Part shown: positions 12,096 to 35,528 of the stretch, one piece after another
How the letters are laid out: every line of letters starts with the position of its first letter
Position numbering within the stretch: the stretch's first letter is position 1
Assembly (NCBI GenBank): GCA_045606105.1
Contig: JAZURI010000003.1
Span: 32,001-96,000, forward strand
Reading direction: 5' to 3'
DNA: 64,000 nt
Source: Spirochaetia bacterium
GTDB lineage: Bacteria; Spirochaetota; Spirochaetia; CADAEX01
Notes under the pieces: generated by a model
Seen by the model: the letters and a program-made list of their open reading frames with translations, nothing else
What the model was told of the DNA's origin: nothing
Database searches by the model: none
Translations under genes and position numbers: made by a program

Positions 12096-12099
12096 CGGT

Positions 12100-14243: not shown

Positions 14244-14267
14244 AGTTATTCAAACTGGGAGGGAAGA

Positions 14268-16369: not shown

Positions 16370-16417
16370 AGCATAAGGGGCTGAGGAACAGTTATTAATA
16401 ATTGTCGGAGAAAAGAA

Positions 16418-19517: not shown

Positions 19518-19518
19518 T

Positions 19519-20439
19519 TTGGACAGATATATTTCCTATCTTACAGATATCAGGAAACTCTCAAAGGCAACAATAAAGGCCTACACCGGGGATCTGGATG
19601 AATATTTCTCATACATGACCTCCAATGGGGAGAATCCGGATAATCCTGACAGGAACTGCGGAAGGAAATATGTGGCCCATCTGTCAAGAAAGGGATTTGA
19701 TCCGAGAAGCATCAACAGGAAAATTTCCTGCCTGAGAAAATATTATGCTTACAGGATCAGGGAAAAAGAGAGCTCCTTCAATCCTTTCGATTTTGTAAAA
19801 GCTCTGAAAACAGACCGTAAGCTGCCGGTATATCTTTCAGCCGGAGAAATAAACAGACTTGACGGTCAGACAGAAAAAAGAGAATCCGTGAGTGCTGCTC
19901 TGGGTGCCCGTGACAATGCCCTTTTCCACTTTCTCTACGCATCAGGATGCCGTATTTCCGAAGCTCTTTCCATCAATCTGGAAAAGGTGGATTTCAGCCG
20001 GAGAGAAATCGTTATCACAGGAAAGGGAAACAAGCAGCGGGTTGTTTTTTTCGGAGACCGGGGATACGAGGCTCTGGAAAAATATCTCCCTTACAGGGAA
20101 GAAATCCTGAATGCAAACCAGAGCAAAACCAAGGCCCTTTTTGTCAGCAGCAGAGGAAAGAGGCTGACAGCCGGTGGTGCTTCATACATACTCGGAAAAT
20201 ATATGGCGGAAAGCGGAATAGACAAGAAGGTTACACTTCATACCTTCAGGCACACATTTGCCACCCATATCCTGGAAAACGGAGCCGATATCAGGGCTGT
20301 ACAGGAGCTTATGGGCCATTCCGGACTTTCTTCGACACAGATTTATACCCATGTGGGAATAGGCAGACTGAAGGATATTCACCGTATTGCCCATCCCCAC
20401 GGAAGGCTTGATAACCAAGGAGAAAAACATGGAATTTAG
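19519..20439 (+). CDS. xerC: Tyrosine recombinase, XerC-like
   Basis: [40 protein letters not shown]; follows topA. Confidence 0.88.
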
Positions 20440-20962
20440 AGGAACTACCATCCTTGCCGTAAGAAAGGGGGGAAAAACAGCCATGGCCGGAGACGGACAG
20501 GTAACCCTTGACAAGACTGTAATGAAAGGACATGCGCGTAAGGTCCGCAAGATATATGACGGAAAGATTCTGGTGGGATTTGCCGGTGCTACGGCAGATG
20601 CCTTCACCCTTTTCGAGAAATTTGAAGGAAAGCTCAAGGAATTCAACGGGGACATGACCCGCAGTGCCGTAGAGCTGGCCAAGGAATGGAGAACAGACCG
20701 TGCTCTCCGTCGTCTGGAGGCAATGCTTCTGGCTGCCGATGCCGGCAAGATACTCCTTATTTCAGGTACCGGCGACGTGGTGGAGCCGGACGAGGATACC
20801 CTGGCCATCGGCTCCGGCGGAAACTATGCCTATGCTGCAGCCCTTGCCCTTCTCCGGGCCGATGTTGCAATGGAGGCATCCGAGGTGGCCAGGAAATCCC
20901 TGGAAATAGCATCTCAGATCTGTATCTATACTAACGACAATATTATCGTGGAGGAGCTCTGA
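20429..20962 (+). CDS. hslV: ATP-dependent protease subunit HslV
   Basis: [32 protein letters not shown]. Confidence 0.97.
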
Positions 20963-22320
20963 TGTTGGATTTTGATCAGCTTACACCGAAACAGATAGTT
21001 GAAGAACTTGATAAATATATCATCGGCCAGAACAATGCAAAGAAGGTCGTGGCCATGGCACTCAGGAACAGAGTCAGGAGAAAACAGCTCCCGGAGGCAC
21101 TCAGGGAAGAGGTTATTCCAAAGAACATCATCATGATCGGTTCCACAGGTGTAGGAAAGACAGAAATAGCCAGAAGACTTTCAAAGCTTTCAGGAGCCCC
21201 ATTTGTAAAGGTGGAGGCTACTAAATATACCGAGGTAGGCTATGTGGGCCGCGATGTGGAGTCCATAATCAGGGACCTTATGTCAGTGGCTGTAAACATG
21301 GTCAAGTCAGAAATGAGAAATGGTGTGGAGGCCGATGCAAAGGCCCGTGTCGAGGAACTTATCCTTGATGCCCTTCTTCCCGGAACCGGAAACAAGCCGC
21401 TTGCCGAGGGCGAAAACCAGGTTCCTCAGATTCCTGCCGGAGATTCCTCTCTCAGGGAAAAGTTCAGGAACAAGCTCCGGAACAACGAACTTGAGGAGAA
21501 GCAGATAGAGATAGATGTGAATCAGGGCGGATTCCAGCCGATGGAGATTTTTGCAGGAACCGGAATGGATGACATGGGTCTCAATTTCGGAAGCATTACC
21601 GGCATGCTGGGCAATAAGAAAAAGAAACGGAGAACCAGTGTAAAGAATGCCAGGGAGCTTCTTCTCGAAGAGGAAATTGACAAGCTTATCGATACAGACA
21701 AGGTTTCCGAAATTGCAAGAAAGCGTACCCAGGAGATGGGTATCGTGTTTATCGATGAAATTGACAAGGTGGCCGGCAGACAGAGTACCGGCGGTGCCGA
21801 TGTATCCAGGGAAGGGGTCCAGAGAGACATTCTTCCTATCGTGGAGGGCTGCAAGGTCAATACAAAATATGGAATGGTGGATACCACCCATATCCTTTTC
21901 ATTGCAGCAGGTGCTTTCCACATGAGCAAGCCGTCGGACCTTATTCCTGAGCTTCAGGGACGTTTTCCTCTCAGGGTTGAGCTGGGAAGCCTCAAGGCCG
22001 ATGAATTTGAGAAAATACTTACAGTACCGAAAAATGCACTTATCAAGCAGTATGAGGCCCTTATGGATACGGAAGGGGTAAAGCTTGAGTTCACACCGGA
22101 AGCCGTAAGAAGAATTGCGGTTATCTCGGAGGAACTGAATTCCGGTACGGAAAATATCGGGGCAAGAAGACTTCATACCATTATGGAGCTTCTTCTGGAA
22201 GAGGTCTCTTTCTCGGCTCCTGAGCTGAAGGGACAGACCATAACCATAACTCCGCAGTATGTGGACGAAAGACTTCACGGAGTATTGGGAGACCAGGATC
22301 TGGCAAAATATATCCTTTAG
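20962..22320 (+). CDS. hslU: ATP-dependent protease ATPase HslU
   Basis: GSTGVGKTEIARR, GYVGRDVES, FIDEIDK, NIGARRL. Confidence 0.98.
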   Translation: MLDFDQLTPKQIVEELDKYIIGQNNAKKVVAMALRNRVRRKQLPEALREEVIPKNIIMIGSTGVGKTEIARRLSKLSGAPFVKVEATKYTEVGYVGRDVESIIRDLMSVAVNMVKSEMRNGVEADAKARVEELILDALLPGTGNKPLAEGENQVPQIPAGDSSLREKFRNKLRNNELEEKQIEIDVNQGGFQPMEIFAGTGMDDMGLNFGSITGMLGNKKKKRRTSVKNARELLLEEEIDKLIDTDKVSEIARKRTQEMGIVFIDEIDKVAGRQSTGGADVSREGVQRDILPIVEGCKVNTKYGMVDTTHILFIAAGAFHMSKPSDLIPELQGRFPLRVELGSLKADEFEKILTVPKNALIKQYEALMDTEGVKLEFTPEAVRRIAVISEELNSGTENIGARRLHTIMELLLEEVSFSAPELKGQTITITPQYVDERLHGVLGDQDLAKYIL

Positions 22321-22331
22321 GGAGGGGAGAT

Positions 22332-23270
22332 ATGAGAGAGCAGATTTCAAACTTATGGAAAAATCTTAAAAACGGACAGAAAGTTACACTGATAATGATT
22401 TTTGTTGCTGCTTTTGCCGGAATTCTGTTTCTGTGCTCGGCAGGAACCACATCCTTCAAGACACCGCTCTTTACCGCACCTATCGGGGATAAGGATGTTA
22501 TCAGCCGTATTTCAATCCGTCTTGACCGGGCCGGTGTGGAGCATTCCCTCAGGGACGGGATGATTTTTGTAAATGACAAGGAATCTGCCGGAAAGATGGT
22601 AGCTCTTCTGGTAAGGGAAGATCTGGTGCCTAAGGAAGCTTCTCCATGGGATGTTTTCAGGATGGACAGATGGACCACCACCGATTTCGAGCGCAATGTC
22701 AATCTCCGCCGTGCCATTACAGAAGGGCTTGAAAACCATATCGAGTCCCTGGATGACATAGATAAGGCCGGAATTACCCTGGTAATGCCTGAAAAGGAGC
22801 TTTTCTCCGAGGATCAGAAAGAGGTTACCGCCTCCATTATCCTTACAGTCAGACCCGGCTCCGACTTCATCTACAACAGAAAGAAGATCGAAGGAATCAT
22901 AAAGCTGGTAAAGTTTGCGGTGGAAGGGCTTGAAACAGAAAATATCACTATCTGCGATACTGCAGGAAATGTCCTCAGCGACCTGTCGGCACTTCCTGTA
23001 CCGCCTCAGGGTATGCAGATAACCGAACCTGAACAGACCGGGATTATAAAGGAAAGCAATACTCTTTTCTTTATCGGTGAGTTCGGAGTAGGATACAATC
23101 ACATATACATGGCTCTTGGTGCTGCTGCCGTAATTGTCATTGCCGTGTTTGCAGTCAGGGGTATCAGAAAGAAAAAGGATGAAGCTCTTCTTTCAGATGC
23201 AAGGAAAATTGCTTCCGAAAATCCGGAAGAAGTTGCCAGACTTATCAAGATGTGGCTTTCGGAGGGGTAG
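22332..23270 (+). CDS. fliF: Internally deleted MS-ring protein FliF (312 aa; RBM1-RBM2 and C-terminal FliG-binding helix kept)
   Basis: TM1, WTTTDFERNVNLRRAI, TASIIL, AVEGLETENITICD, then TM2 and ENPEEVARLIKMWL; about 250 aa shorter than canonical FliF. Confidence 0.88.
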   Translation: MREQISNLWKNLKNGQKVTLIMIFVAAFAGILFLCSAGTTSFKTPLFTAPIGDKDVISRISIRLDRAGVEHSLRDGMIFVNDKESAGKMVALLVREDLVPKEASPWDVFRMDRWTTTDFERNVNLRRAITEGLENHIESLDDIDKAGITLVMPEKELFSEDQKEVTASIILTVRPGSDFIYNRKKIEGIIKLVKFAVEGLETENITICDTAGNVLSDLSALPVPPQGMQITEPEQTGIIKESNTLFFIGEFGVGYNHIYMALGAAAVIVIAVFAVRGIRKKKDEALLSDARKIASENPEEVARLIKMWLSEG

Positions 23271-23273
23271 AAT

Positions 23274-24242
23274 ATGAAGAAAAAACTTTCCGGAAAAGAG
23301 AAAGCTGCCGTATTCATCATGGCTCTGGGATCTGAGATCTCCTCTTCCGTATGCAGTCATCTCTGCAGTGAAGACCAGGAAATCCTCTCCTATGAAATAG
23401 CAGCCAGAAGAATAACCGGTGCCTGCAGCGTAAAGTCTGTTCTGTCTGAATTCAGGAATCTCATGAAGGCAGGTAACCTTACCGTTATCGGAGGAATCGA
23501 CTATGCCGGTTCAGTTCTTAAAAGGACAATGGGACTTGAAAAAGCAGAAGAAATCATCAGCCGTATTTCCCTGTTCATGCACAGGAAGCCCTTTGATTCC
23601 ATAAGAAAGGTTGCGCCGGATTCGCTTCTTGCCCTTCTGAAAGGGGAACATCCCCAGACCATAGCCGTGGTTCTTGCCAATGTGGAGCCGGAAAAGGCCT
23701 CTTCAATCCTTGCCAGACTGCCTCGTGAAATCCAGTCGGATGTGGCAAAGCGTATTGCCGTATTGGACAGAACCGAACCTGAAACTCTTCTCAGAATTGA
23801 GAAAATCATCGAAAGAAAGCATGCTATGGCTTCTGCTGCCGGAGAATACAGGGGCGGAATAGAAAGCATCATCGAAATACTGAACCATATGGACCGCAGC
23901 TCCGGGGACAATATTATAAGTACCATTCTCAGGGAGGATTCTCTCCTGTCAGCCAGACTCAGGGAAAAGAATCTCAGCTTCGACGATATTGCATTGCTGG
24001 ACAATCCTTCTGTTATCCGGATAATCAGGGAAACCGATCCGGTTGAAATCGAGAAGGCACTCCGTACAGCCGATTACAGGGTACGGGAAAAAATCATGAA
24101 CAATCTCTCCTCCGAGGTTTCCGAAAAGGTAAGAAACAACGAGGGTCGTCCTATTCTGATTGCCGATATCGAGGCTGCACAGAACAGGATAACAGGGCTT
24201 TTGAAAAAGCTTATGGAACAGGGCGAAATTGCTTTTGCATGA
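23274..24242 (+). CDS. fliG: Divergent C-ring protein FliG
   Basis: LSGKEKAA, GGIDYA, EHPQTIA, GGIESI and C-terminal GEI; MFxF motif and torque helix degenerate. Confidence 0.93.
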   Translation: MKKKLSGKEKAAVFIMALGSEISSSVCSHLCSEDQEILSYEIAARRITGACSVKSVLSEFRNLMKAGNLTVIGGIDYAGSVLKRTMGLEKAEEIISRISLFMHRKPFDSIRKVAPDSLLALLKGEHPQTIAVVLANVEPEKASSILARLPREIQSDVAKRIAVLDRTEPETLLRIEKIIERKHAMASAAGEYRGGIESIIEILNHMDRSSGDNIISTILREDSLLSARLREKNLSFDDIALLDNPSVIRIIRETDPVEIEKALRTADYRVREKIMNNLSSEVSEKVRNNEGRPILIADIEAAQNRITGLLKKLMEQGEIAFA

Positions 24243-24253
24243 AGAGGTAACTG

Positions 24254-24904
24254 ATGTCAGATATACTTTTTAAAGCCGTAGATATAGCAGAACTGGAAAA
24301 TGCCAAGGCGCTGGAGAACCGGGAAAATGCCTGTGCCGAGGCAGAAAGCATAAGGGCTCAGGCCCGTGCCGAAGCGGAGCGTATACTGGCCGAGGCTGAA
24401 AAGAATGCCCGTCTTGCCGAAAGGAAAGGGGAACAGAAGGGGCGTGATGCAGGCTTCCGGGAGGGACTTGCAGAGGTTTCCATGGTTGCGGAAAGAATCC
24501 GTTCCGTTCTTGTGAGGCTTACGGAGGAAAAGGACAGGATGCTGGCTTCTGCAGAGGATGAACTTGCCTCCCTGGCTCTTGAAATTGCAGAAAAGATAGT
24601 TAAAAGAAGCTGTGAGGAATACCGGGAAACAGCTGTTGAGAACATAAGGCATGCACTGACAGGCATCGGTGAAAGCTCAGAGGTGACAATCAGGGTCAAT
24701 CTGGAGGATATCGATATATCCCAGACCCATCTCAGGGATTTTCAGTCTGCATGTTCTGATGGCGGAAAAATCAAAATAGTACCGGAGCCGTCGGTGGAAA
24801 GGGGCGGCTGCATAGTCGAGACCGGATCATGCCGTATCGATGCCACAGTCTCATCCCAGCTCAGGGCTGTGGAAAGGATATGGAAAGATGTTCGGGAAGT
24901 ATAG
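24254..24904 (+). CDS. fliH: Export apparatus protein FliH (shortened)
   Basis: GxxxG repeats (GEQKGRDAGFREG), TIRVN, VERGGCIVET..IDAT. Confidence 0.88.
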   Translation: MSDILFKAVDIAELENAKALENRENACAEAESIRAQARAEAERILAEAEKNARLAERKGEQKGRDAGFREGLAEVSMVAERIRSVLVRLTEEKDRMLASAEDELASLALEIAEKIVKRSCEEYRETAVENIRHALTGIGESSEVTIRVNLEDIDISQTHLRDFQSACSDGGKIKIVPEPSVERGGCIVETGSCRIDATVSSQLRAVERIWKDVREV

Positions 24905-25154
24905 GGAAGCCCTTCGGAAAAGGGATACGCTGACCTTTACCGGCAGGATAGTCAAGGTTTCGGAAAACCTGGCCGAAAGCATAGGGCCGGCAGTGGCACT
25001 GGGCGATATCTGCCGCATAATTATTCCATCCACAGGCGAAGGTATCAGGGCCGAGGTAATCGGTCTGGACCGGGAAACAGTCTGCCTCAGGGCAGCCGGC
25101 TCTCTCAAGGGGGTCAGGATCGGCTCTGTAGTGGAAGCGGAAAACAGCTTGTAA
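24888..25154 (+). CDS. fliI: FliI N-terminal fragment only (88 aa, no ATPase domain); mini-protein or pseudogene
   Basis: MFGKYREAL...TGRIVKV...ESIGP..LGDIC...AEVIGL matches the FliI N-terminal beta-barrel; ends TAA TAA; no Walker A seen in the ORF-track translations downstream. Confidence 0.8.
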   Translation: MFGKYREALRKRDTLTFTGRIVKVSENLAESIGPAVALGDICRIIIPSTGEGIRAEVIGLDRETVCLRAAGSLKGVRIGSVVEAENSL

Positions 25155-25199
25155 TAAAATTTCACTTATATATCAGACCGAAAAGTTCGACAATTAAGT

Positions 25200-25604
25200 A
25201 TGGTGCAGTTTTTATATCCCGTACTAAGAGAGCCGGACATTCTCAGGAAATATCCCACAGAAATCGTTGATATGACAAAAATCGGCAATTCAGTGAAGAG
25301 AATCACTGCCGAGGTTATAATCCCTGGAGTAGGCTTTGCCTCCGTATCCCTGAAATTCAACGGTAACAGGTTCACCATGGATATTGCTGTAAACCGCAGC
25401 GGGGTAAAGAAGCTGGTGGAGGAGAGAATCCATGAGCTTGTAAGCAGGTATAAATCCCCCGATTATATCCTTACAGAGCTTTCCGTAAGGCTGGATGAGG
25501 AAAGGCTGTGCACATCCGGTTCCTGTCTCGATATCATGTCTGACAGGTGGCTCAATATCGTTTATCCCGACTCATCATCATGTCATCTGGAAACCTTTGC
25601 CTAA
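25200..25604 (+). CDS. Hypothetical protein resembling a stand-alone FliK C-terminal (T3S4) domain
   Basis: IIPGVGFASVSLKFNGNRFTMDIAVNRSGVKKLVEERIHELVSRY resembles the L.P..LG.V.I...beta-beta-alpha pattern; lies where fliK is expected. Confidence 0.5.
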   Translation: MVQFLYPVLREPDILRKYPTEIVDMTKIGNSVKRITAEVIIPGVGFASVSLKFNGNRFTMDIAVNRSGVKKLVEERIHELVSRYKSPDYILTELSVRLDEERLCTSGSCLDIMSDRWLNIVYPDSSSCHLETFA

Positions 25605-25675
25605 TAATATATTTATATTAAATAATAAAGAAACAGTTTGCAAAATTACGGTATGTTTGCTAAAATATATGCAGT
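25605..25675 (+). promoter_or_regulatory. Sigma70-type promoter inside the fla cluster
   Basis: AT-rich UP tract, TTGCAA (25638-43), 17-nt spacer, TGc-TAAAAT (25661-66), ATG 9 nt later. Confidence 0.7.
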
Positions 25676-26647
25676 ATGCAGGATGGGGCATGGGATTACA
25701 GTTCTTATAAATCTCTGTTGACAGCTTTTTCGGAAGCTTTTGCTCTCCTTGCATCCGTAAAAAACGGTATTTCCATTGAATTTTCAGAACTGAAGCAGAC
25801 AGTTTACAGCCGATATGTAAGGTCTCAGCCAAGCTATACCGCATCACTTCTTCTTGACTGGAACGGAATCGGGATTACGGCAGATGCAGATCCCGGTCTT
25901 TCATTTTACGTGCTGGAGAGACTTCTCGGAGGAAACGGCAGTCCGGGTATAGTGAACAGGCCTCTTTCGGTAATAGAGCAGGCTGTGGTTTCAGATTTTT
26001 TTTCAAGGCTTGCGGAGGGGCTGGGTACTGTTGCCGGCTGGTGCGGTTCAGAAGCTCCGGAATGGAAAAAGCTTTATCCTTCGGTATCGGAGACAGGGCT
26101 TACAGAGGAGGAATCCCCGGTTGTCATCCTGTCTTTCAATGCAGACGGAAAAAAGGATAACCTTAGAATTGTTTTCCCTGCAGCTGCAGGCAGTGCATTA
26201 TGTGCCCTGTTGTCAGAGGCTTTTGCCGAAGATGGCAGTGTAAGGTTTTCTGCAGAGACGGAGGGAGTGGTTCTTTCTGAAACGGAAAGGGCAGATCTGG
26301 GAATCGGCGATGTTATTGCATTGGGTAAACCGGGAAACCTGCTGCAGTTCAGGATCGGAAAGAAGTTATGCTGCAGATGTGAAACCGGTCTGTCAGGGGA
26401 TAAACCTGCGGTACGGACCGTGGATGTCATGCCGGAGCCTGAAAGGGATGGGACTGTAACCGTTCTTTTCGGCCGGGGAAGGATCGGAGTGGCTCAGGCG
26501 GCGGCTCCGGAAAAGGGAATAACAGCCCTGGTGGACAGAAAAAAGGGAGAGCCGGCCGGGCTTCTTGTCTCAGGAAAGGCTGTTGCTCTGTGTGAATTTG
26601 TAATGCTTGAGGATAAGCTGGGAGTGCGTATCATAAAGTTGATTTGA
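25676..26647 (+). CDS. fliM: FliM middle/SpoA domains fused to a FliN-like SpoA domain; no CheY-binding N-terminus
   Basis: LERLLGGNG...RPLSVIE (FliM middle), LGIGDVIAL...GKKLCCRCETG (SpoA1), VTVLFGR...GEPAGLLVSGKAVALCEFVMLEDKLGVRI (FliN SpoA). Confidence 0.8.
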   Translation: MQDGAWDYSSYKSLLTAFSEAFALLASVKNGISIEFSELKQTVYSRYVRSQPSYTASLLLDWNGIGITADADPGLSFYVLERLLGGNGSPGIVNRPLSVIEQAVVSDFFSRLAEGLGTVAGWCGSEAPEWKKLYPSVSETGLTEEESPVVILSFNADGKKDNLRIVFPAAAGSALCALLSEAFAEDGSVRFSAETEGVVLSETERADLGIGDVIALGKPGNLLQFRIGKKLCCRCETGLSGDKPAVRTVDVMPEPERDGTVTVLFGRGRIGVAQAAAPEKGITALVDRKKGEPAGLLVSGKAVALCEFVMLEDKLGVRIIKLI

Positions 26648-26678
26648 ATATGATGTTTTAAAATCTCTGGGAGGGGAC

Positions 26679-27173
26679 GTGAAAAACATTCTTTTAACAA
26701 TAATTTTGTCTCTTAATATATTTTCTGCACAGCATGTGTTCTGTGATACATTTTCTGCTGCGGATGAAAGTTCATTATCCATAGGGGGCGGCAGCAGTGC
26801 CGGTGTCCGGGCTGCTTCTCCGGTATTTTCCTCAGGGGACCTTTTCAGGATGATACTGGTTCTGGTGCTGGTTACCGCACTGATCTATGCAGTTTTCCAT
26901 CTCCTCAGGAAATTCCGTTTTTCAGAGAACGGGGGAGACAAGGGGGATATCCGCATTCTTTCCAGCAAGGGACTGGGACCTGGAAAGGCACTCCATGTGG
27001 TTGAGATTGCCGGCCGGTATTTTGTTATCGGTGCTTCCGACAACTCTGTTTCATGTATTACCGAGCTTACGGAGGAAGAGGGAAGGAAAATCGGTACCGG
27101 ACAATCCGTATCAGGCTTCTCCCTTGCGGAAAATCTCCGTAAAATCAAGGCCTGCAGGGAGAGACTGAAATGA
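26679..27173 (+). CDS. fliO: FliO/FliZ export-gate assembly factor
   Basis: TM followed by IRILSSKGLGPGKALHVVEIAGRYFVIGASDNSVSCI; immediately upstream of fliP. Confidence 0.85.
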   Translation: MKNILLTIILSLNIFSAQHVFCDTFSAADESSLSIGGGSSAGVRAASPVFSSGDLFRMILVLVLVTALIYAVFHLLRKFRFSENGGDKGDIRILSSKGLGPGKALHVVEIAGRYFVIGASDNSVSCITELTEEEGRKIGTGQSVSGFSLAENLRKIKACRERLK

Positions 27174-27952
27174 AAAAAGTACTTCTTCTGGTTTTACTTA
27201 TGGGATTATTCCTTTCTGCAGAGCTCTTTGCTTCCGAAAGCAATGCTTCAGGCGGTTTTGCCCTCCCTTCCGTAGAAATAAACATGGGAGAAGGGGCTGT
27301 AAACACCGGTGACAATGAAAAGACTGCCTCCTCCATAAAGCTGCTGCTGCTCCTTTCAGTAATTGCCATAGCCCCTTCGGTGCTGCTTCTCTGCACCTCC
27401 TTCATAAGGATAGCCGTGGTTCTGGATTTCATAAAGCGTTCCCTGTCGCTGCAGCAGACTCCACCCAATCAGATAATCATGGGACTGGCCCTTTTCCTTA
27501 CGGTCTTCATCATGTGGCCTGTCTTTGACGATATTTATCAGAATTCCTTCAAGCCTTTTTCCCAGGGGGAGATAGAGGCTTCCGAAATGTATGGCAGGGC
27601 TGAAAAGCCTCTCAGGATATTCATGTACAACCAGCTCAGGGATAACCCGGAAAACATCAGGCTTTTCATGAATCTCAGCGGTCTTCCGAAGCCGGCAAAC
27701 CTTTCCGAGGTTCCGACCTATGTCCTGGTTCCTGCCTTTGCACTCAACGAACTTACGGTGGCGTTCAGGATCGGTGTCCTTATTTTCATACCGTTCCTGG
27801 TTATAGATATGATAGTGGCATCCATTCTCATGTCCATGGGGATGGTCATGGTACCACCTGTAATGGTGTCTCTTCCGTTCAAGCTGATGGTATTTGTCCT
27901 TGCTGACGGATGGAACCTTATAATTGGCCGGTTGCTCAGCAGCTTTGTCTAG
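27170..27952 (+). CDS. fliP: Export gate protein FliP
   Basis: TSFIRIAVVL, QQTPPNQI, PAFALNELTVAF, LMSMGMVMVPP, LPFKL..DGW. Confidence 0.97.
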   Translation: MKKVLLLVLLMGLFLSAELFASESNASGGFALPSVEINMGEGAVNTGDNEKTASSIKLLLLLSVIAIAPSVLLLCTSFIRIAVVLDFIKRSLSLQQTPPNQIIMGLALFLTVFIMWPVFDDIYQNSFKPFSQGEIEASEMYGRAEKPLRIFMYNQLRDNPENIRLFMNLSGLPKPANLSEVPTYVLVPAFALNELTVAFRIGVLIFIPFLVIDMIVASILMSMGMVMVPPVMVSLPFKLMVFVLADGWNLIIGRLLSSFV

Positions 27953-27960
27953 GAGATAAA

Positions 27961-28230
27961 ATGGAACTCGGTGATGCTGTATACATTTTCAAGACATCCC
28001 TGATTCAGGTACTGCTTGTTGCCTCTCCGGTGCTTCTGGTCAGTCTTCTTGTGGGGCTGATAGTGTCGTTTTTCCAGTCGGCAACCTCAATCCACGAGCA
28101 GACTCTGGTATTTATTCCTAAAATTCTGGCAGTTCTCCTGGTCCTGATACTTCTGGGGGGCTGGATGATTTCTGCCATAGAGCAGTATACGCTGCATATA
28201 TTTGACATGATTCCGGGGATGACTGAATGA
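27961..28230 (+). CDS. fliQ: Export gate protein FliQ
   Basis: VGLIVSFFQSATSIHEQTLVFIPKI; AGGAG SD before ATG 27961. Confidence 0.95.
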   Translation: MELGDAVYIFKTSLIQVLLVASPVLLVSLLVGLIVSFFQSATSIHEQTLVFIPKILAVLLVLILLGGWMISAIEQYTLHIFDMIPGMTE

Positions 28231-28943
28231 ACTGGTGGCTTTTTTTCCTGGCCTTTGCCAGAATATTTGCCTTGATGCAGACTGCACCTCTTCTCTCATC
28301 AAGAAGCGTTCCGCTCCTGGTCCGCATCGCCATGTCCCTTTTTACAGCCTACGGAGTCACACCGGCCCTTACCGGAATTGTCATACCACAGGATCCGGTT
28401 TCATATTATCTCCTGCTGGCAGGAGAGGCCATGCTGGGAGCGGCAATGGGACTCTTCATGCAGATGGCTTATATGGTATTCCTTTCTGCCGGCCGGTTCA
28501 TGGGACTCTGTTTCGGAAATTTTTCGGGGGATGCCGATTCTCCGGTTGCCGGTCTCATGAATTATGCCGCAGTTTTCGTATTTCTGGCCGCATCGGGGCT
28601 CTACAGCCTTTTCTTTATAGGGGTTACCTCCTCCTTCAAGGCTCTTTCGGCCTACGACATTGCAGCCTGCAGGGAGGGAATGGCATTGCTCCTGACAAGG
28701 GGTTTTTCTGCAATGTTTGCCAAGGCACTACTGACAGCACTGCCCGTGATTGCCGTTCCTCTTCTTGTTACATTGATTACCGGGATTCTGAGACACATGG
28801 ATTTCGGCTGGAGTGCGGCCATGGTTACCGGAATCATAATGCTGGCCTTTGTCCTTCCGTTCCTTATGGATAGCTTCGGAAGCTTCATCGACAGCAGCTT
28901 TGACATAGTTTCGGGATGGATTTCATCGGGAGGAAGCCTATGA
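28227..28943 (+). CDS. fliR: Divergent export gate protein FliR
   Basis: FARIFALMQTAPLLSS..VP..VR and GEAMLG motifs; hydrophobic; between fliQ and flhB. Confidence 0.85.
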   Translation: MNWWLFFLAFARIFALMQTAPLLSSRSVPLLVRIAMSLFTAYGVTPALTGIVIPQDPVSYYLLLAGEAMLGAAMGLFMQMAYMVFLSAGRFMGLCFGNFSGDADSPVAGLMNYAAVFVFLAASGLYSLFFIGVTSSFKALSAYDIAACREGMALLLTRGFSAMFAKALLTALPVIAVPLLVTLITGILRHMDFGWSAAMVTGIIMLAFVLPFLMDSFGSFIDSSFDIVSGWISSGGSL

Positions 28944-29632
28944 TTGATGAAATCCGTGAGGTAAAGGCCACTGCCCGAAGGGTGAAAAAGGCTTCTGAAA
29001 GGGGAGATTCACCGAGAAGCAGGGAATTTGCAATGGCTTTTTCACTTCTGGCCGTACTGCTTGTCACCTTGGTTTTCGGAAAATATTTTCTCGGATGCAT
29101 CAGGGAAACCGTTGCTTCCTTTATCGGTTATGCAGTGGAGGGTGAGCTTGACGGAAAGGCTGCAGCCATGGCCTTCGGATGCTTTGTCCGGGTATGTGTT
29201 CCCTATTTTGCGGTGCTGGCTGCCGTGACCTGGATGACAGAGGTCAGTCAGGTGGGCTTTGTATTCGTTACCGGGGAAAAAAGAAAAATGGGAAAAAAGA
29301 CCCCATCCTCCGGATGGATCGGTGGAATTCTTTCCCTGCTCAGGACTGCTGCGGTGACAGCGGTGGTTTTCCTGGCTGTAAAAAGCGATTTCAACCGGCT
29401 TGCCGGTATGACAGATATGATGTTTACCTTTGTATTTGTTTTCAGGGTTCTTCTTTATGTGGGAATCCTTCTGGTGATTTCTGCATCTGCAGATTACTTG
29501 ATTGCCAGGTTCCTTCACAGGGAATCTCTCCGTATGACCAGAAGGGAGCTTTCGGAAGAACAGAGGGATGAAATGGGAGATCCGGCTGTAAAGGCCAGAC
29601 TTGACGAGAGAATGAAACAGCTTCTGAGCTGA
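28940..29632 (+). CDS. flhB: FlhB transmembrane part only (230 aa; stops before the NPTH site)
   Basis: KATARRVKKASERGDSPRSRE, QVGF, LRMTRRELSEEQRDEMGDPAVKAR, then stop. Confidence 0.88.
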   Translation: MIDEIREVKATARRVKKASERGDSPRSREFAMAFSLLAVLLVTLVFGKYFLGCIRETVASFIGYAVEGELDGKAAAMAFGCFVRVCVPYFAVLAAVTWMTEVSQVGFVFVTGEKRKMGKKTPSSGWIGGILSLLRTAAVTAVVFLAVKSDFNRLAGMTDMMFTFVFVFRVLLYVGILLVISASADYLIARFLHRESLRMTRRELSEEQRDEMGDPAVKARLDERMKQLLS

Positions 29633-29646
29633 AAGGGCTTTGATAT

Positions 29647-31668
29647 ATGATGAAAGAGAGAAAAAACAGCAATATTCTGGTGCCGCTGATAGTGCTTGTG
29701 GTGGTAGCGATGATAATAATACCAATGCCGGTACCGCTGCTTGATATCTTTATGGCAGCCAACCTGCTTTTCAGCCTTGCGGTACTGCTGATGGTCATCT
29801 ACACCGGAAAGCCTTCCGATTTTTCGGTTTTCCCGACCATGCTTCTTGTCTCCACCGTATTCGGACTGGGGCTGAATGTATCCTCCACCAGGCTTATCCT
29901 TTCCAAAGGGGCCGAATTTGACGGCAAGCTTATCAGGGCCTTCGGAAACTTTGTCGTAGGTTCATCGGGAAATGAGGGTCTTGTAATCGGTCTGATCATC
30001 TTTGTCATCTTTATCCTTGTCCAGCTGATCGTAATAACCAAGGGTGCCGGAAGAGCTGCCGAGGTTGCTGCCAGGTTCAATCTGGATGCCATGAACCAGC
30101 GGAATCTCTCCATCGATGCCGATGTGGCAGGGGGCCATATTACAGCAGCTGAAGGGGAAATACGGAAAAAGGAGTATCAGCAGGAAACTGATTTCTACAA
30201 GAGCATGGACGGTGCCTCCAAGTTTGTTTCCGGAAATGTAAAGGTGGGAATCGTCATCACATTGGTCAATATCATCGGCGGTATAATCATCGGAATGCTG
30301 CTCAGGAAGGAAAGCTTCGGTCTGGCTGTGGCAAACTATACAGCCCTTACCATCGGAGACGGTCTTGTAACCCAGTTCCCTTCCATTATGATTTCGGTAG
30401 CCACTGCCATCATAGTCACCAGCTCCACCGGTTCCGGCTCGCTGGCAGCCGACTTTGCCGGACAGTTTTCCAAAAGGCCGGAAATATACCGTATCCTTGC
30501 AGTTTTTTCAGTAATAATGGCCCTTCTTCCGGGCTTCAGAAGAGCATGGTACATTTTCATTCCTCTGGGAATCTTTCTTTTCTATCTGGGACACAAACTG
30601 GGACAGTCAGGTTCCGTTCCTGAAAAAGAGGAGAAACCCGAAACAAAGCCGGAAAGTGCCGCCCCTGCCGCAGACATAAGCATTTCCCCAGTGTCAGAGG
30701 TTCATCCTCTCTATCTGGGACTGGGATACGGTCTTTACAGATTTGCATCTGACAGCACCATGTTCGGAAACCGTATAACGGAACTCCGGAAAAAAATAGC
30801 ATCTGAACTGGGATTTGCCATTCCTCCGGTCAGGATAACAGATAACCTTAATCTTAAGCCGGCGGAATACAGTATCAGGATCAGGGATGTGGAGGCAGCC
30901 AGGGCTTCTGTCCGTGCAGACAAGCTTGTGGCCATAGCCGACGGTCCGGTATCGGACAAGGTGCTCCGAAATCTGGGTGAGGAATTCAATGAACCGGTCT
31001 ACGGAAAAAAAGCCTGCTGGATTTCGGCAGAAGAGAGGGAAAATGCCCGGGACAAAGGGTGTATAGTTACAGATATACCGTCTCTCATTATTGTCCATAT
31101 GGAGGAGATAATCAGGAGAAATGCCGCTGACCTCCTTGACCGTCAGACTGTGCAGTCCATGCTGGATGAGCTTTCAAAAAGACATCCTGCCGCAGTAAAG
31201 GAGACCATGAAGCTTCTTACTCTGATAGATATACACAAGGTGCTCAGGAATCTGCTCAAGGAACAGGTTTCCATCCGGGATCTGGGACTGATTCTTGAAA
31301 CTCTCGGCGACAGCGTTTCTGTCTCCGGGGATATCGGATATCTTACGGAAGAGACACGCCGGGGACTCAGACGGCAGATTTCACACAGCTATGCAGATGA
31401 AGGAATGCATCTCCATGTCATTACACTCAGCAGCGAAACAGAGAAAAAGCTTCTGGAAAATCCTTATGATATCAGATTCAACGAAAAGCTTGCAGGAAGG
31501 GTAATGGAGCTGGCAGAGGGAAGAAACGTGGTTCTTATGTGCAGAAAGGAGCTCAGGGCCGGTCTGGGAGCCCTTCTTGCCGGAAAAAAGAGCTTTGTTC
31601 CGGTATTATCGGCAGATGAGAAGGCAGATGACATAATTATTGAATTCCACGGAAAGGTTGATGTATGA
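29647..31668 (+). CDS. flhA: Export apparatus protein FlhA
   Basis: FSVFPTMLL, LNVSSTRLIL, VITKGAGRAAEVAARFNLDAM, MDGASKFV, TIGDGLV, LLKEQVSIRDL. Confidence 0.96.
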   Translation: MMKERKNSNILVPLIVLVVVAMIIIPMPVPLLDIFMAANLLFSLAVLLMVIYTGKPSDFSVFPTMLLVSTVFGLGLNVSSTRLILSKGAEFDGKLIRAFGNFVVGSSGNEGLVIGLIIFVIFILVQLIVITKGAGRAAEVAARFNLDAMNQRNLSIDADVAGGHITAAEGEIRKKEYQQETDFYKSMDGASKFVSGNVKVGIVITLVNIIGGIIIGMLLRKESFGLAVANYTALTIGDGLVTQFPSIMISVATAIIVTSSTGSGSLAADFAGQFSKRPEIYRILAVFSVIMALLPGFRRAWYIFIPLGIFLFYLGHKLGQSGSVPEKEEKPETKPESAAPAADISISPVSEVHPLYLGLGYGLYRFASDSTMFGNRITELRKKIASELGFAIPPVRITDNLNLKPAEYSIRIRDVEAARASVRADKLVAIADGPVSDKVLRNLGEEFNEPVYGKKACWISAEERENARDKGCIVTDIPSLIIVHMEEIIRRNAADLLDRQTVQSMLDELSKRHPAAVKETMKLLTLIDIHKVLRNLLKEQVSIRDLGLILETLGDSVSVSGDIGYLTEETRRGLRRQISHSYADEGMHLHVITLSSETEKKLLENPYDIRFNEKLAGRVMELAEGRNVVLMCRKELRAGLGALLAGKKSFVPVLSADEKADDIIIEFHGKVDV

Positions 31669-32531
31669 TCGGTGATTATTCCTTAGTTGTCAGAGCCCTT
31701 GAAAGGATAGAAAAAAAACTGGATTCCGGTATCGGTACAACAGCTGTGCCCGATAATATTCTCTATACCGAGGAGCTTCTCCGTTCAAACGATTTTTCCC
31801 ATTCCTTTATCAGGAAAATATCGGAGACCCTGATGAGGGAGGTTTCCTACGAGAATCTTCTGAGCAGAGGCTATGTGCTGAAGAGAATCAGGGATCTTAT
31901 TCTTGATAATATAAATATTTATGATATTACAGAGCCTTATGTTCCGGAAATTACGGTGTTGCTGGGCCCAACCGGAGTCGGAAAGACCACCACGGTAGCC
32001 AAGCTTGCCGCAGAGAACATAAAGAAAGGGCGGCGTACAGGAATCATCACCACCGATTATTTCAAGGCAGGAGCTGCCGAGCAGATAGAGACCCTGGCCA
32101 AGATCATGAAGATTCCTTATGTTTCAATCCGTAATTCCGAGGATATGGAAAGACAGATTGACGAATGGAGCAGTGCCATGGATTCCATCCTGGTGGACTC
32201 CGTAGGAAAAAGCCCCAGGGATGAAATGCTTTCGTCGGGAGATGTGATGGCAGGCTGCGGACAGGCGGCTCACAGGTTCCTGGTGGTAAGTGCCTCCACA
32301 AAAGGGTCCGACCTGGTAAGGATCATGAAGCAGTTCGATATTTTCGGATACGATTCCGTTATATGCACGAAGCTGGACGAGACCTACCATATCGGCAACC
32401 TTATTTCCGCACTTGCGGAGGCAGACAGAAGCATAGCCTACATAACTACGGGGCAGAAGATACATGTAAATATAGAGAAGGCCTCAAAGGAAAGGCTTCT
32501 CGGTTATCTGGAAGGATTTGCTGCAGTATGA
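31665..32531 (+). CDS. flhF: SRP-type GTPase FlhF (N-terminal B domain largely absent)
   Basis: GPTGVGKTTTVAKLAA, DSVGKSPRD, TKLDET, YITTGQ; follows flhA. Confidence 0.88.
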   Translation: MIGDYSLVVRALERIEKKLDSGIGTTAVPDNILYTEELLRSNDFSHSFIRKISETLMREVSYENLLSRGYVLKRIRDLILDNINIYDITEPYVPEITVLLGPTGVGKTTTVAKLAAENIKKGRRTGIITTDYFKAGAAEQIETLAKIMKIPYVSIRNSEDMERQIDEWSSAMDSILVDSVGKSPRDEMLSSGDVMAGCGQAAHRFLVVSASTKGSDLVRIMKQFDIFGYDSVICTKLDETYHIGNLISALAEADRSIAYITTGQKIHVNIEKASKERLLGYLEGFAAV

Positions 32532-33340
32532 TTGAAGAGGATGTTATGGATAAAGCAGATTTTTTGACTGATGAAGAAAGAATGGAGCAGGAGCTCTGGA
32601 AAAAATATAAGGAAACCGAGAATCCGGAACTGGAAAACCAGATAATCAAGAAATATCTTTACCTGGTCAAATATGTGGCAGGTAAGATTCCGCTGAATCC
32701 GGGTTCAGGGGTGGAGTTTGAAGATTACTGCGGCTTCGGAGTACTGGGTCTTCTGGATGCAGTCAGGAAATTTGACCTGGGAAAAAATACTAAATTCAAG
32801 ACCTATGCCATTATCAAGATCAGGGGAGCCATAATCGATGAAATGAGAAAGCTGGATTTTTTCCCAAGATCGGTTCACCAGACTGCCAAGGCTATCGAGG
32901 ACAATATCAGAATTCTGGAGGAGAAGCTGGAAAGAGTTCCGAGTGATGAGGAAATTGCGGAGCACATGAATATTTCTGTCCAGGAATTCAGACGGAAGCT
33001 TCAGAGAGTCAGCTGTACCACCATTATCTCCCTTAATGAGCAGTGGGCTTCCGGTGACAACGACAAGCTATCCCTGCTTGATACCCTTGAATCCCCGGCC
33101 GGTCTTAATCCCGAAACCATAGCAGAACGGAAGGAGATCATCAGGGTGGTTTCCGATGCCATCATGACACTTCCTGAAAAGGAGAGACAGGTACTCTTCC
33201 TGTATTACAAGGAGGAGCTTACTTTGAAGGAAATCGGCAATACCCTTGATGTTACCGAATCGAGAATATCGCAGCTTCATGCCAAGGCTGTACTGACCCT
33301 CAGAACCAGGCTTTCAAATTCAAGAAGGGGAATCTGTTGA
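32528..33340 (+). CDS. fliA: FliA/WhiG (sigma-28) RNA polymerase sigma factor
   Basis: GLLDAVRKFD, FKTYAIIKIRGAIIDEMR, YYKEELTLKEIG..LDVTESRISQLH; ATGA overlap with flhF. Confidence 0.95.
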   Translation: MIEEDVMDKADFLTDEERMEQELWKKYKETENPELENQIIKKYLYLVKYVAGKIPLNPGSGVEFEDYCGFGVLGLLDAVRKFDLGKNTKFKTYAIIKIRGAIIDEMRKLDFFPRSVHQTAKAIEDNIRILEEKLERVPSDEEIAEHMNISVQEFRRKLQRVSCTTIISLNEQWASGDNDKLSLLDTLESPAGLNPETIAERKEIIRVVSDAIMTLPEKERQVLFLYYKEELTLKEIGNTLDVTESRISQLHAKAVLTLRTRLSNSRRGIC

Positions 33341-33642
33341 TCTGGCTGCTTGTTTCCGTAAACCTGGTGTTTCTCCTGGTGGCTCTTTTTGTCATCCGCC
33401 GATATTTCAGGCGTGTTTCCGGGGAGCTCAATTCCCTTGTGGAGGAGTTCAACAGAAATGCGGAAAGAAATCTGATACTTCTGGAAGACAGGCTGCGCAG
33501 GATAGACAATCCCGACGACCGTACCCTTTACCAGGTCAGGCTTCTTCATAAAGAGGGGCTTTCGGAGGCGGAAATTGCGGAAAAGCTTTCGCTTCCCCTT
33601 TCTCAGGTCTCCTTTATCATAGATTTTTCAGATAAGCTCTGA
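33337..33642 (+). CDS. Small protein with N-terminal TM, coiled-coil and C-terminal HTH-like segment; last gene of the fla cluster
   Basis: ELNSLVEEFNRNAERNLILLEDR; LHKEGLSEAEIAEKLSL; TTGA overlap with fliA. Confidence 0.7.
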   Translation: MIWLLVSVNLVFLLVALFVIRRYFRRVSGELNSLVEEFNRNAERNLILLEDRLRRIDNPDDRTLYQVRLLHKEGLSEAEIAEKLSLPLSQVSFIIDFSDKL

Positions 33643-35107: not shown

Positions 35108-35159
35108 GTATAATATGTTATCAATAATAGTGGAAATCTGCAAGGTTTCGGAGGAATTT

Positions 35160-35528
35160 ATGTTTACACTGCGGGTGGAGGACTGGTTTGCCGCAGCCCA
35201 TTATCTTGAAAACTATCACGGCAAATGCGAAAACCTTCACGGACATAACTACAAGGTACGGGTTTATGTTTCGGGAACAGAGCTGGGTCCCGGAGGGATG
35301 CTCATCGATTTTGCCCTGCTGAAGAAAATGGTGAAGGAGATACTGGACAAGCTGGATCACCGGAATCTCAACGACCTGCCCTGCTTCAGCGGTACCGAGC
35401 CGAGTGCGGAAAACATCAGCAGGTTCATTTTCAGGGAGCTGAAACCGATGCTTCCTTCCAATGTTGCCCTTTCGGGTGTGGAGATTTTTGAAACCGAAAA
35501 GAACTGCGTGCTTTACAGGGAGGACTGA
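35160..35528 (+). CDS. queD: 6-carboxytetrahydropterin synthase
   Basis: FAAAH...GKCENLHGHNY, LDHRNLND, PSAENI, ETEKN. Confidence 0.93.
   Translation: MFTLRVEDWFAAAHYLENYHGKCENLHGHNYKVRVYVSGTELGPGGMLIDFALLKKMVKEILDKLDHRNLNDLPCFSGTEPSAENISRFIFRELKPMLPSNVALSGVEIFETEKNCVLYRED

Follow-up and report, generated by a model that had tools for sequence, protein, structure and literature searches.

A flagellar export gene set without motility genes in a genus of gut spirochetes, kept by purifying selection and possibly part of a sigma-28/FlgM switch

Introduction

Remnants of the flagellar export apparatus in bacteria without a flagellum are already known from a few cases, namely from Buchnera, Lysobacter and Chlamydia, to which the disputed idea of CORE may be added. 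Here we set beside them a gene cluster at positions 22332-33642 of a 64,000-nucleotide stretch of a Spirochaetia genome (G000:C3:32001-96000; the whole stretch is called the window), which encodes a flagellar export gate without rod, hook, filament or stator. In Buchnera aphidicola, a host-associated bacterium with a reduced genome, the basal bodies keep rod, hook and outer rings without flagellin or stator, and a transport role has been proposed for them. The spirochete cluster resembles this case in that export genes are kept without flagellin and stator; it differs in that rod, hook and FliE were found in none of the nine species of the genus that we compared and in that the MS-ring protein lacks the rod-facing domain. 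Chlamydiae possess orphan FliF-, FliI- and FlhA-like genes and use sigma-28 on non-flagellar genes, but they are not known to have a flagellar FliPQR-FlhB set, and the orphans may join the complete injectisome of these bacteria. Lack of motility, a short FliF-like protein and sigma-28 are shared with the spirochetes, which however have a complete flagellar gate and gave no sign of an injectisome. Autolysins that separate the cells are among the genes driven by sigma-D in Bacillus subtilis. Lysobacter enzymogenes OH11 has kept functional export genes without flagellin and reportedly co-opted them for secretion and for the control of another process (PMC7688988). OH11 is reported to secrete FlgD, the hook cap, still and to depend on FliI (PMC7688988), whereas the spirochete set contains no hook genes and the lineage of the window has no export ATPase. 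The reports on the CORE complex and on a hat-like structure concern flagellated species (PMC6456723, PMC9380563); in the spirochetes the flagellum is gone, and FliF, FlhF, FliA and FlgM co-persist.

Among spirochetes, a 2025 preprint describes a non-spiral Sphaerochaeta-type clade almost without motility genes, and a single loss of the spiral shape was deduced there (PMC12236494); spirochete motility loss is presented in it as the complete loss of this Sphaerochaeta type. Our literature search, which covered articles without their supplements, retrieved no description of the genus analyzed here or of any other spirochete in which the export core has outlived the flagellum, although the supplementary tables of PMC12236494 could list the genus. 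Comparison of the nine species indicates that the gene set is kept by purifying selection and is not decaying, and genes outside the window suggest a connection to a sigma-28/FlgM circuit.

Results

A flagellar operon without axial, stator and chemotaxis genes

The 11 contigs of the source genome G000 add up to 1.465 Mb at a completeness of 99% and a G+C content of about 46%, with about 96% of the length within long open reading frames (ORFs). It was compared with eight other species of its genus (nine species in total, 1.2-1.8 Mb, drafts or metagenome-assembled genomes that are 74-99% complete) and with 11 genomes from three other genera of the family. Two motile members of the family from two genera, G011 (loci L028 and L029) and G015, served as references. 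ORFs were identified by Pfam and NCBIfam profile matches, by synteny and by tblastn with the proteins of the G011 operon. In the window, 15 intact and tightly packed ORFs follow hslU on the plus strand up to position 33642, where the convergent murE comes next. The motile references have orthologous genes in the same order after topA-xerC-hslVU, which in G011 reads hslU-flgB-flgC-fliE-fliF(569)-fliG-fliH-fliI(438)-fliJ-orf211-fliK(400)-flgD-flgE-orf65-motA-motB-fliL-fliM-fliY-fliO-P-Q-R-flhB(401)-flhA-flhF(379)-flhG-orf204-fliA (lengths in amino acids, aa). Compared with G011 and G015, the window is without flgB, flgC, fliE, fliJ, most of fliK, flgD, flgE, motAB, fliL, most of fliY, and flhG.

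The missing genes were not found elsewhere in the genome. With the G011 proteins as queries, tblastn gave no match in the whole G000 genome for flgB, flgC, fliE, fliJ, fliK, flgD, flgE, motA, motB or fliL, and for flhG it yielded only weak ParA-like matches at other loci and thus no counterpart. Profiles for Flg_bb_rod, Flg_bbr_C and flagellin had no match in G000 either. Across the genus, flagellin (PF00669), the rod N-terminal domain Flg_bb_rod (PF00460), the rod/hook C-terminal domain Flg_bbr_C (PF06429), FliE (PF02049) and CheW were detected in 0/9 species, compared to 11/11 genomes of the other three genera of the family for flagellin and for rod. As a control for these profiles, each of the five families gave matches in 4/14 control genomes. 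A MotA/MotB stator was not found: the sole MotA_ExbB match of G000 is an ExbB of 205 aa with an ExbD-like ORF behind it, and only ExbB-sized frames of this family, in four of the nine species, occur across the genus. A full FliI was not found in G000, where ATP-synt_ab matches were confined to a V-type A/B pair and Rho. These lie at G000:C8:8225-10309 and C9:81640-83133, and no F1 alpha/beta pair was found, which may be relevant to the generation of the proton-motive force.

Taken singly, none of these absences is proof, whereas the agreement of nine assemblies is. Since all nine species lack filament and rod genes while keeping FliF and FlhA (9/9 each), the loss of motility is old and shared by the genus, and the remaining gene set has lasted while the genus diversified. 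The preliminary description of the window, which had been made from its letters without database searches, had listed the missing genes against a Borrelia operon. The comparison with G011 from the same family, which replaces that one, bears out the list, and the proposed whole-genome profile search, run for flagellin, rod, stator, CheW and full-length FliI, found none of them in G000.

Truncated and fused proteins of the cluster

All genes of the cluster are on the plus strand. The first one, fliF' (22332..23270, 312 aa), encodes a first transmembrane helix, RBM1-RBM2, a short linker, a second transmembrane helix and a C-terminal tail, with an internal deletion of RBM3, the part that forms S-ring and collar. 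The protein aligns to the 569-aa FliF over residues 1-220, after which the alignment resumes at the second membrane helix, followed by the C-terminal one; consistently, Pfam recognizes YscJ_FliF only, the NCBIfam fliF match spans positions 9-223 of 555, and no match to YscJ_FliF_C (the RBM3 collar) was obtained in G000 FliF'. The C-terminal helix, ENPEEVARLIKMWLSEG in FliF' and EHPEDVAQLIRTWLIEE in the motile relative, is presumably the peptide that binds FliG-N in model systems. An AlphaFold (AF2) model of FliF' from a 40-sequence alignment had a mean pLDDT of 75.7, and its best PDB matches in Foldseek were RBM1/RBM2 rings of FliF (8wkq, 7cik, 6sd2, 8fte) besides EscJ (1yj7), PrgK (5tcp) and MxiJ (8axn). 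Six proteins considered as further RBM3-less forms of FliF among the best 150 of 5184 matches (P0122, P0124, P0131, P0144, P0148 and P0074) were rejected, being fragments or garbled and having no second membrane helix and C-terminal tail.

FliG (23274..24242, 322 aa) has all three domains (Pfam FliG_N, FliG_M and FliG_C) and the EHPQT motif, whereas the charged helix at the C terminus is changed in part, as is the preceding segment, a region that we take to make the stator contacts. The following fliH (24254..24904, 216 aa; Pfam FliH, E 1e-23) precedes an N-terminal fragment of FliI with 88-104 aa (24840/24888..25154, with 24888 as likely start, giving 88 aa; NCBIfam fliI_yscN positions 12-94 of 440), in which the FliH-binding N terminus and the beta-barrel are present and, according to the alignment, the ATPase domain is gone. 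A model of two FliH chains with the 88-aa stub had a complex score of 0.67, whereas the highest of three controls had 0.08; the mark set by calibration of this score was reached by 58/80 solved complexes and 2/110 mismatched pairs. In the model, the pLDDT of the partners was at least 81, at least 87% of the contacts agreed between runs, and the interface was formed by stub residues 1-20 and the C-terminal domain of FliH. The stub is therefore predicted to bind FliH2, although FliH-FliI is a textbook pair with solved structures, so that the score may come from resemblance to these and indicates a preserved likeness, not binding as such.

The next ORF (25200..25604, 134 aa) is a C-terminal remnant of FliK, corresponding to its type III secretion substrate specificity switch (T3S4) part and termed FliK-C in the following. 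Its Pfam Flg_hook match (E 4e-4) remained under the cut-off, whereas hhalign of the 8-member family to the 400-aa FliK of the relative gave a probability of 88% and E 3e-6 over residues 294-363, which is the Flg_hook domain of that protein; a PDB sequence search with the FliK-C-like profile returned nothing below E 0.5. In the gap of 71 base pairs (bp) upstream of fliM/N, a sigma-70-like site at 25637-25666 (TTGCAA-17-TAAAAT, with TG before the -10 element) may be an internal promoter. The FliM-FliN fusion itself (25676..26647, 323 aa; Pfam FliM and two stretches of FliMN_C, NCBIfam fliM and fliN) has lost the LSQxEIDxLL-type N-terminal peptide, which binds CheY, and gained a second SpoA domain from FliY/FliN; the ortholog in the sister species G005 has two SpoA stretches as well.

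The membrane part of the export apparatus starts with fliO (26679-27173, Pfam FliO), fliP (27170-27952, Pfam FliP), fliQ (27961-28230, Pfam Bac_export_3) and fliR (28227-28943, Pfam Bac_export_1). FlhB' (28916/28940..29632, 230-238 aa; Pfam Bac_export_2 positions 4-240 of 335, NCBIfam flhB positions 6-245 of 348) consists of the membrane domain and the linker only, and the C-terminal autocleaving switch domain is missing in eight of the nine species. FlhB of the ninth species, G001, is full length (locus L027, G001:C6, 5941-6987, minus strand), and the NPTH of the motile relative, which we take to be the cleavage motif of FlhB, reads GKDG there. FlhA (29647..31668, 673 aa) is full length with its cytoplasmic domain (Pfam FHIPEP positions 1-653 of 657, E 2e-198). 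FlhF (31665..32531; Pfam SRP54, NCBIfam FlhF) has 288 aa compared to 379 aa in the motile relative, with NG GTPase domains and a shortened N-terminal B region, and no flhG follows. Next comes fliA, encoding sigma-28 (32363..33340, likely start 32528 or 32546, 264-270 aa; Pfam sigma-70 regions 2, 3 and 4), and the cluster ends with a 101-aa membrane-anchored ORF, orfX (33337..33642), with a C-terminal helix-turn-helix-like segment and weak region-4-like matches.

From hslU-fliF onward, the junctions in operon order measure 11, 3, 11, -17, 45, 71, 31, -4, 8, -4, -28, 14, -4, 14 and -4 bp. The gap of 11 bp between hslU and fliF, the intact ORFs without frameshift debris and the fusion of a FliN-like domain to FliM (two FliN-type SpoA stretches in the 323-aa protein) had thus been described correctly; the tight spacing was right insofar as overlaps and short gaps prevail, whereas an upper limit of 35 bp for the gaps is exceeded twice (45 and 71 bp). 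Likewise, the truncations do remove parts tied to lost partners, as had been claimed: RBM3 of FliF, the C-terminal domain of FlhB, the ATPase body of FliI and the CheY-binding N terminus of FliM.

Relation to flagella and injectisomes

The core of the type III secretion system of flagella (fT3SS; FliP, FliQ, FliR, FlhB, FlhA and FliO) is present in all nine species as intact genes of flagellar ancestry. A bacterial flagellum is not encoded; filament, rod, hook, FliE, stator and the RBM3 collar were each looked for and not found. With injectisomes the cluster shares an RBM1-RBM2 ring like SctJ, a two-SpoA FliM-FliN like SctQ, FliH/SctL, a T3S4 protein like SctP and homologs of SctRSTUV, but it differs by keeping FliG, FliO and FlhF and by the loss of the C-terminal domain of FlhB/SctU. 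Clade scores of the NCBIfam models were higher on the flagellar side for every protein, for example 188.8 bits for fliF versus 36.1 for SctJ, and 90.4 bits for flhB versus 70.9 for SctU, and the genes occupy the flagellar locus; by descent the cluster thus belongs to the flagellar and not to the Sct clade. The secretin family (PF00263) was above the cut-off in none of five genomes; needle, inner rod, translocon and SctD were not searched for. Sub-threshold secretin matches in G000 and G005 were discarded as belonging to a BPD_transp_2 ATP-binding cassette (ABC) permease. The lack of a secretin together with the flagellar affinity of the proteins argues that the cluster is not an injectisome, and the lack of rod and hook that it is not a Buchnera-type basal body, so that the distinction from both made in the preliminary description stands (secretin 0/5, rod/hook 0/9).

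Three layouts and an invariant set within the genus

Three layouts were distinguished in the genus. In type A (G000 and G005), the genes form one contiguous cluster, and the two species have the FliI stub and the FliK-C remnant in common. Type B (G002, G003, G004, G006, G007 and G008) is divided into two loci, the first of which reads topA-xerC-hslVU-fliF'(314)-fliG-fliH-fliI-fliJ-like (in G008 the contig ends inside fliI, and its fliJ lies outside the data). FliI of type B is full length (437 aa), has the P-loop lysine and threonine, and shares 61% identity with FliI of the motile relative. The second locus reads LysM gene-ftsK-103-aa FliG-M-only-295-aa sigma-like-FliK-C(118)-FliM/N(328)-fliOPQR-flhB'(243)-flhA-flhF(329)-fliA. 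In locus L021 (G006:C87, oriented 2219-5833), as in L022-L026, ftsK heads the export genes behind a consensus sigma-28 promoter. Two extra genes of this locus encode the 103-aa protein, which consists of a FliG middle domain only, and the 295-aa protein, which has weak matches to sigma-70/extracytoplasmic function (ECF)-like factors. Type C (G001, 96% complete) has hslU-fliF(470, with part of RBM3 kept)-degenerate 221-aa fliG at one locus and fliOPQR-flhB(348)-flhA-flhF(365)-fliA-orfX at another; no FliM/N-type domain and no FliI were found anywhere in this genome, and FliH is also lost. OrfX thus occurs in layouts A and C, and the G001 ortholog weakly matches DUF6115 and SpiroCoCo_C.

FliOPQR, the membrane part of FlhB and FlhF are present in all nine species, and the FliK-C remnant in eight. 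The invariant set consists of FliF (RBM1-2, second membrane helix and FliG-binding C-terminal tail), FliOPQR, the membrane part of FlhB, FlhA, FlhF and FliA, complemented by FlgM in the five genomes tested for it. Its membrane components equal the CORE set, to which the cluster had been likened, with FliF, FlhF and FliA in addition. The claim that the complex is ATPase-less holds for G000 and G005, which have the FliI stub and no FliJ, but not for the six sister species with a 437-aa FliI and a FliJ-like gene; since these keep the full enzyme, the ATPase was lost late and secondarily in the lineage of the window. Different breakpoints in relatives had been named beforehand as a sign of decay, and three layouts were indeed found; the cytoplasmic parts are therefore dispensable to varying degrees.

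Selection and divergence

No stop codon or frameshift was present in any retained gene of the loci fetched from the nine species (up to 17 genes each, at synonymous distances from 0.25 to >1.5). The ratio of nonsynonymous to synonymous substitutions (dN/dS) was determined by the Nei-Gojobori method on codon alignments. In pairs of the six type B sister species (dS 0.25-1.3), it was 0.03-0.21 for every retained gene: fliF 0.06-0.08, fliG 0.05-0.10, fliH 0.07-0.13, fliI 0.06-0.08, fliJ-like 0.13-0.17, FliK-C 0.12-0.20, fliM/N 0.09-0.18, fliP 0.05-0.07, flhB' 0.15-0.21, flhA 0.06-0.09, flhF 0.05-0.09 and fliA 0.05-0.08. For housekeeping genes, these pairs gave ratios of 0.03-0.12 (topA about 0.05, hslU 0.03-0.05, murE 0.05-0.07). 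Between G000 and G005, where dS of 0.7-2.6 is partly saturated, dN/dS was 0.09-0.33, compared to 0.045 for hslU and 0.11 for murE. Here the FliI stub had a ratio of 0.27 with a bootstrap upper bound of 0.50, orfX had 0.18, and resampling of codons (300 bootstraps per gene) never gave a ratio of 1 or more for FliH, the FliI stub, FliK-C, FliM/N or orfX. Over all comparisons the ranges were 0.06-0.16 for fliF', 0.05-0.16 for fliG, 0.12-0.29 for FliK-C and 0.06-0.21 for flhA, and the cytoplasmic substrate-docking domain of FlhA had 0.07-0.10.

Divergence from motile relatives is large. The two motile genera share 96% identity in FliG, 95% in FliM and 80% in HslU, whereas between the genus and a motile genus these values are 43-44%, 25% and 70%; overall, the retained proteins are 25-53% identical between the genus and the motile references and 77-96% between the two motile genera. 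By these identities and ratios, constraint was reshaped after the loss of motility and then held. The view that this is not a decaying operon is supported by genus-wide conservation, the lack of frameshifts and dN/dS far below 1.

FlgM and sigma-28-type promoters outside the window

A FlgM match (PF04316) above the cut-off was obtained in all five genomes tested, with 43.1 bits in G000 compared to a cut-off of 25. The flgM gene of G000, a 94-aa ORF at C1:32482-32766 (C1:32453-32766 with the -10 element), lies outside the window; it is syntenic among the genomes and has a dN/dS of 0.19-0.30. Upstream of flgM, a GCCGATA(T/A) -10 element is present in G000, G002 and G006, G001 has GTCGATAT, and in G005 the upstream region is off the contig. 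The pattern TAAA-N14-16-GCCGATAW had 56 matches in the nine genomes, compared to seven for the reversed control; the sigma-28 consensus used is that of Bacillus and enteric bacteria. GCCGATAW by itself was discarded as a promoter signal, as 272 of its 279 genome-wide copies are inside ORFs. In the window it occurs 17 times versus 2.7 expected (e.g. at 20284, 24162, 25809 and 33398), an excess that is probably a codon-usage effect (Ala-Asp-Ile/Asn-type codon runs), and only sites with a -35 element or in an intergenic position were used.

Conserved intergenic sites are located 18-32 bp before the starts of ftsK, of the gene for a 154-aa secreted protein, of LysM-M23 peptidase genes and of glmS. 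A gene for a GerMN-domain membrane protein has a site 8 bp before its start; for a SPOR-domain protein of type A the distance is 79 bp, which places the site within the ORF upstream. The ftsK site belongs to type B, where ftsK heads the export-gene locus, and sites at LysM-repeat M23 genes occur in types B and C. In G000, the sites read TAAA-N15-TCCGATAA for the 154-aa secreted protein (C11:183-679), TAAA-N16-GTCGATAA for LysM-M23 (C2:258606-259620), TAAA-N16-TCCGATAA for GerMN (C6:3013-3835) and GCCGATAA for glmS (C2:311159-312420); the SPOR site (C5:77069-77827) conforms to the strict consensus, and the sites of these G000 orthologs are strict or one-off throughout. The sigma-28-driven envelope proteins that we looked at have ordinary N-terminal signal peptides or membrane anchors. 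Strict sites are few in the motile relatives, with four in G011 and ten in G015, compared to two and four, respectively, in the control.

FliA, FlgM and sigma-28-type promoters at flgM and at peptidoglycan-related genes are thus shared with the classical sigma-28/FlgM checkpoint; the differences are that there is no hook-basal body to sense, that flagellar late genes are missing and that FlgM export is something we infer. The preliminary description had called the function unknown, which can now be improved upon, as FlgM and the sigma-28 promoters outside the window point to a regulatory secretion circuit.

A similar reduction in a second family

To place the genus within its class, 151 genomes, each at least 90% complete, were surveyed. 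FHIPEP was present in 133 and flagellin in 124 of them, and both were missing in 18 from five families; complete loss is therefore commoner, and retention of the core is the exception. FHIPEP without flagellin was found in nine genomes, namely the five sampled species of the genus and all four sampled genomes of a second family (f39), which measure 4.6-7 Mb and have neither flagellin nor the rod domain (0/4 each). In one of them, G070, the locus reads hslU-fliF(551, with RBM3)-fliM(291)-fliO-P-Q-R-flhB(365)-flhA-flhF-fliA-orfX-like (L099, G070:C1:3736000-3755900, about 8200-19900, minus strand), and tblastn matched orfX in L099. FliG is encoded elsewhere in the genome in 4/4. FliA of this family is 70% identical to that of the motile relative and 49% to that of G000, from which we conclude that the family arrived at a similar set by a reduction of its own. 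With such a stripped cluster in two families, the endpoint may be one that evolution can reach repeatedly.

Neighboring genes and occurrence

Upstream of the cluster, topA, xerC, hslV and hslU are arranged on the plus strand from 17418, an order that up to fliF is common to all relatives looked at; hslV-hslU (20387..22320, plus strand, hslU at 20962-22320; Pfam Proteasome and AAA_2) form the housekeeping head of the transcription unit. A second XerC/XerD-like recombinase is encoded upstream of topA (window about 15515-16360, C3:47515-48360); it is 35% identical to the XerC of the motile relative, and the same paralog is found upstream of topA in sister species. A scan of 17000-36000 for sigma-70 promoters and terminators was not informative, with 38 sites versus 20.8 expected and 31 versus 20.0 expected. 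The stretch is present in animal gut and faeces metagenomes (eight studies) and in two RNA libraries.

Discussion

The remnant very probably has some function, and its job is probably other than swimming. As to what this job is, we favor, as a tentative proposal that could well prove wrong, that the rod-less gate exports FlgM and thereby controls sigma-28, so that the apparatus would act as a secretion-coupled switch for envelope genes and not as a motor. The cluster is the residue of a periplasmic-flagellum operon after the loss of rod, hook, filament, stator and chemotaxis input. FlhF would seed or place a FliPQR-FlhB'-FlhA gate ringed by FliF' in the inner membrane, and FliG, FliM/N, FliH and, where present, FliI and FliJ would serve as sorting and loading platform. 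In model systems, sigma-28 acts as a chaperone that brings FlgM to the cytoplasmic domain of FlhA. FlgM may then be passed through the gate to the periplasm by the proton-motive force, perhaps together with a few other late-type substrates docked on this domain. The freed sigma-28 would transcribe flgM, the LysM-M23, SPOR and GerMN genes, glmS and the gene of the 154-aa secreted protein, and in six species also ftsK and the export genes. Under this proposal, the cytoplasmic accessories FliI, FliJ, FliH, FliM/N and FliK-C would raise efficiency and are being lost in one lineage after another. The C-terminal domain of FlhB docks rod- and hook-type substrates and is switched by FliK, and its loss would fit a gate that no longer handles such substrates. 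Export without the ATPase is reported to be possible in Salmonella (PMC4230889).

Several points weigh against a FlgM-exporting gate. The main objection is that a gate without the C-terminal domain of FlhB, as encoded in eight of the nine species, could be export-dead or work differently, as this domain is needed for export in model flagella. Moreover, FliPQR-FlhB gates are described as closed until FliE and the rod assemble, and FlgM could control sigma-28 without being secreted. The retention of FliK-C without its known partner, the FlhB C-terminal domain, is unexplained by the proposal. In the lineage of the window, dN/dS exceeds that of type B species by a factor of 2-4, and erosion is continuing, with FliI and FliJ lost in this lineage and FliH, FliI and FliM/N lost in G001. 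With respect to the regulon, no strict sigma-28 sites were found at the orthologs of the target genes in the motile G011 and G015, and strict sites at rnfC (opposite strand) and at a nucleoside phosphorylase gene were rejected as regulon members because they lie inside conserved coding sequence and are probably due to chance. In the second family, FlgM reached sub-threshold scores only, in three of the four genomes. Contigs assembled from the RNA libraries cover the cluster, hslVU and the opposite-strand murE evenly, which may be due to DNA carry-over.

Alternatively, the stripped apparatus might be a general exporter for proteins unrelated to flagella, for example enzymes or factors for adhesion and the envelope, which it would transfer from the cytoplasm to the periplasm, with sigma-28 control being incidental. 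The evidence from conservation and selection is the same for this explanation as for the FlgM gate, the cytoplasmic domain of FlhA is kept in full, and the six species with FliH, FliI and a FliJ-like protein have a full export engine. A precedent is the fT3SS of Lysobacter enzymogenes OH11, which is reported to secrete non-flagellar proteins (PMC7688988). However, no candidate cargo was identified, and the sigma-28-driven envelope proteins looked at need no type III secretion system, having their own signal peptides or anchors. In addition, the five genomes yielded neither a secretin nor another conduit through the outer membrane, the substrate-docking domain of FlhB is lost in eight of nine species, and one species dropped the ATPase complex and the C-ring altogether, so that we consider a general exporter unlikely.

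The invariant set, CORE plus FliF, FlhF and FliA, would also suit a structural or positional role without transport, in which the complex with FlhF marks the pole or the division site or forms a membrane-shaping platform. FlhF is kept in all nine species without FlhG, and in six of them the export genes stand directly behind ftsK under one sigma-28 promoter. In the literature, a CORE nanotube platform (PMC6456723) and a hat-like inner-membrane structure linked to fT3SS proteins (PMC9380563) are described, but the nanotube function of CORE is disputed ('Bacterial nanotubes as a manifestation of cell death', PMC7532143). Purifying selection on transport parts, namely the cytoplasmic domain of FlhA, FliH and FliI, also speaks against a mere landmark, which we regard as quite improbable.

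Still less support remains for a slowly decaying, functionless relic that survives by co-transcription with hslVU and by other duties of fliA and flgM. The confirmed gene-order link to hslVU, the three reduction states within one genus, the raised dN/dS in the lineage of the window and a divergence that, relative to HslU, is far faster than in motile relatives would all be expected from a relic. Against it stand the retained genes without stop or frameshift in nine species and the ratios of 0.03-0.21 for every type B gene, about as in murE and topA. Furthermore, useless DNA gets deleted in streamlined genomes of 1.2-1.8 Mb, the second locus of type B is intact although unlinked to hslVU, and a distant family reached a similar set, which together make a relic very unlikely. 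That a flagellum is still built from genes that are unassembled or too divergent to detect is hardly credible even though all nine genomes are drafts (74-99% complete), because five different gene families are missing from every one of nine independent assemblies, motile relatives carry these genes inside an operon that is contiguous here with junctions that leave no room for them, and FliF is without the rod-holding RBM3.

A wider interpretation, which is possible but rather doubtful, is that two families reduced the flagellum to the same minimal machine of an RBM1-2 FliF ring, the FliOPQR-FlhB-FlhA gate, FlhF and sigma-28, with injectisome-like convergence in the genus in addition (the ring, the FliM-FliN fusion and the T3S4 protein); the cluster would then be a living case of the motility-stripped and secretin-less stage postulated between the flagellum and a non-flagellar type III secretion system, working as a free-standing switch by which the state of an export gate in the inner membrane sets sigma-28 control of division and peptidoglycan genes. 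Independently of this, a whole genus of gut spirochetes without axial, stator and chemotaxis genes, nested among flagellated relatives, is a clean comparative case, in which the graded loss of accessories marks out the indispensable set. The finding bears on the origin of non-flagellar type III secretion systems from flagella, as several parts independently took injectisome-like forms. For the biology of these spirochetes, the intact sigma-28/FlgM pair and the conserved promoters at non-flagellar genes turn the vague question of what a flagellar remnant may do into a specific one.

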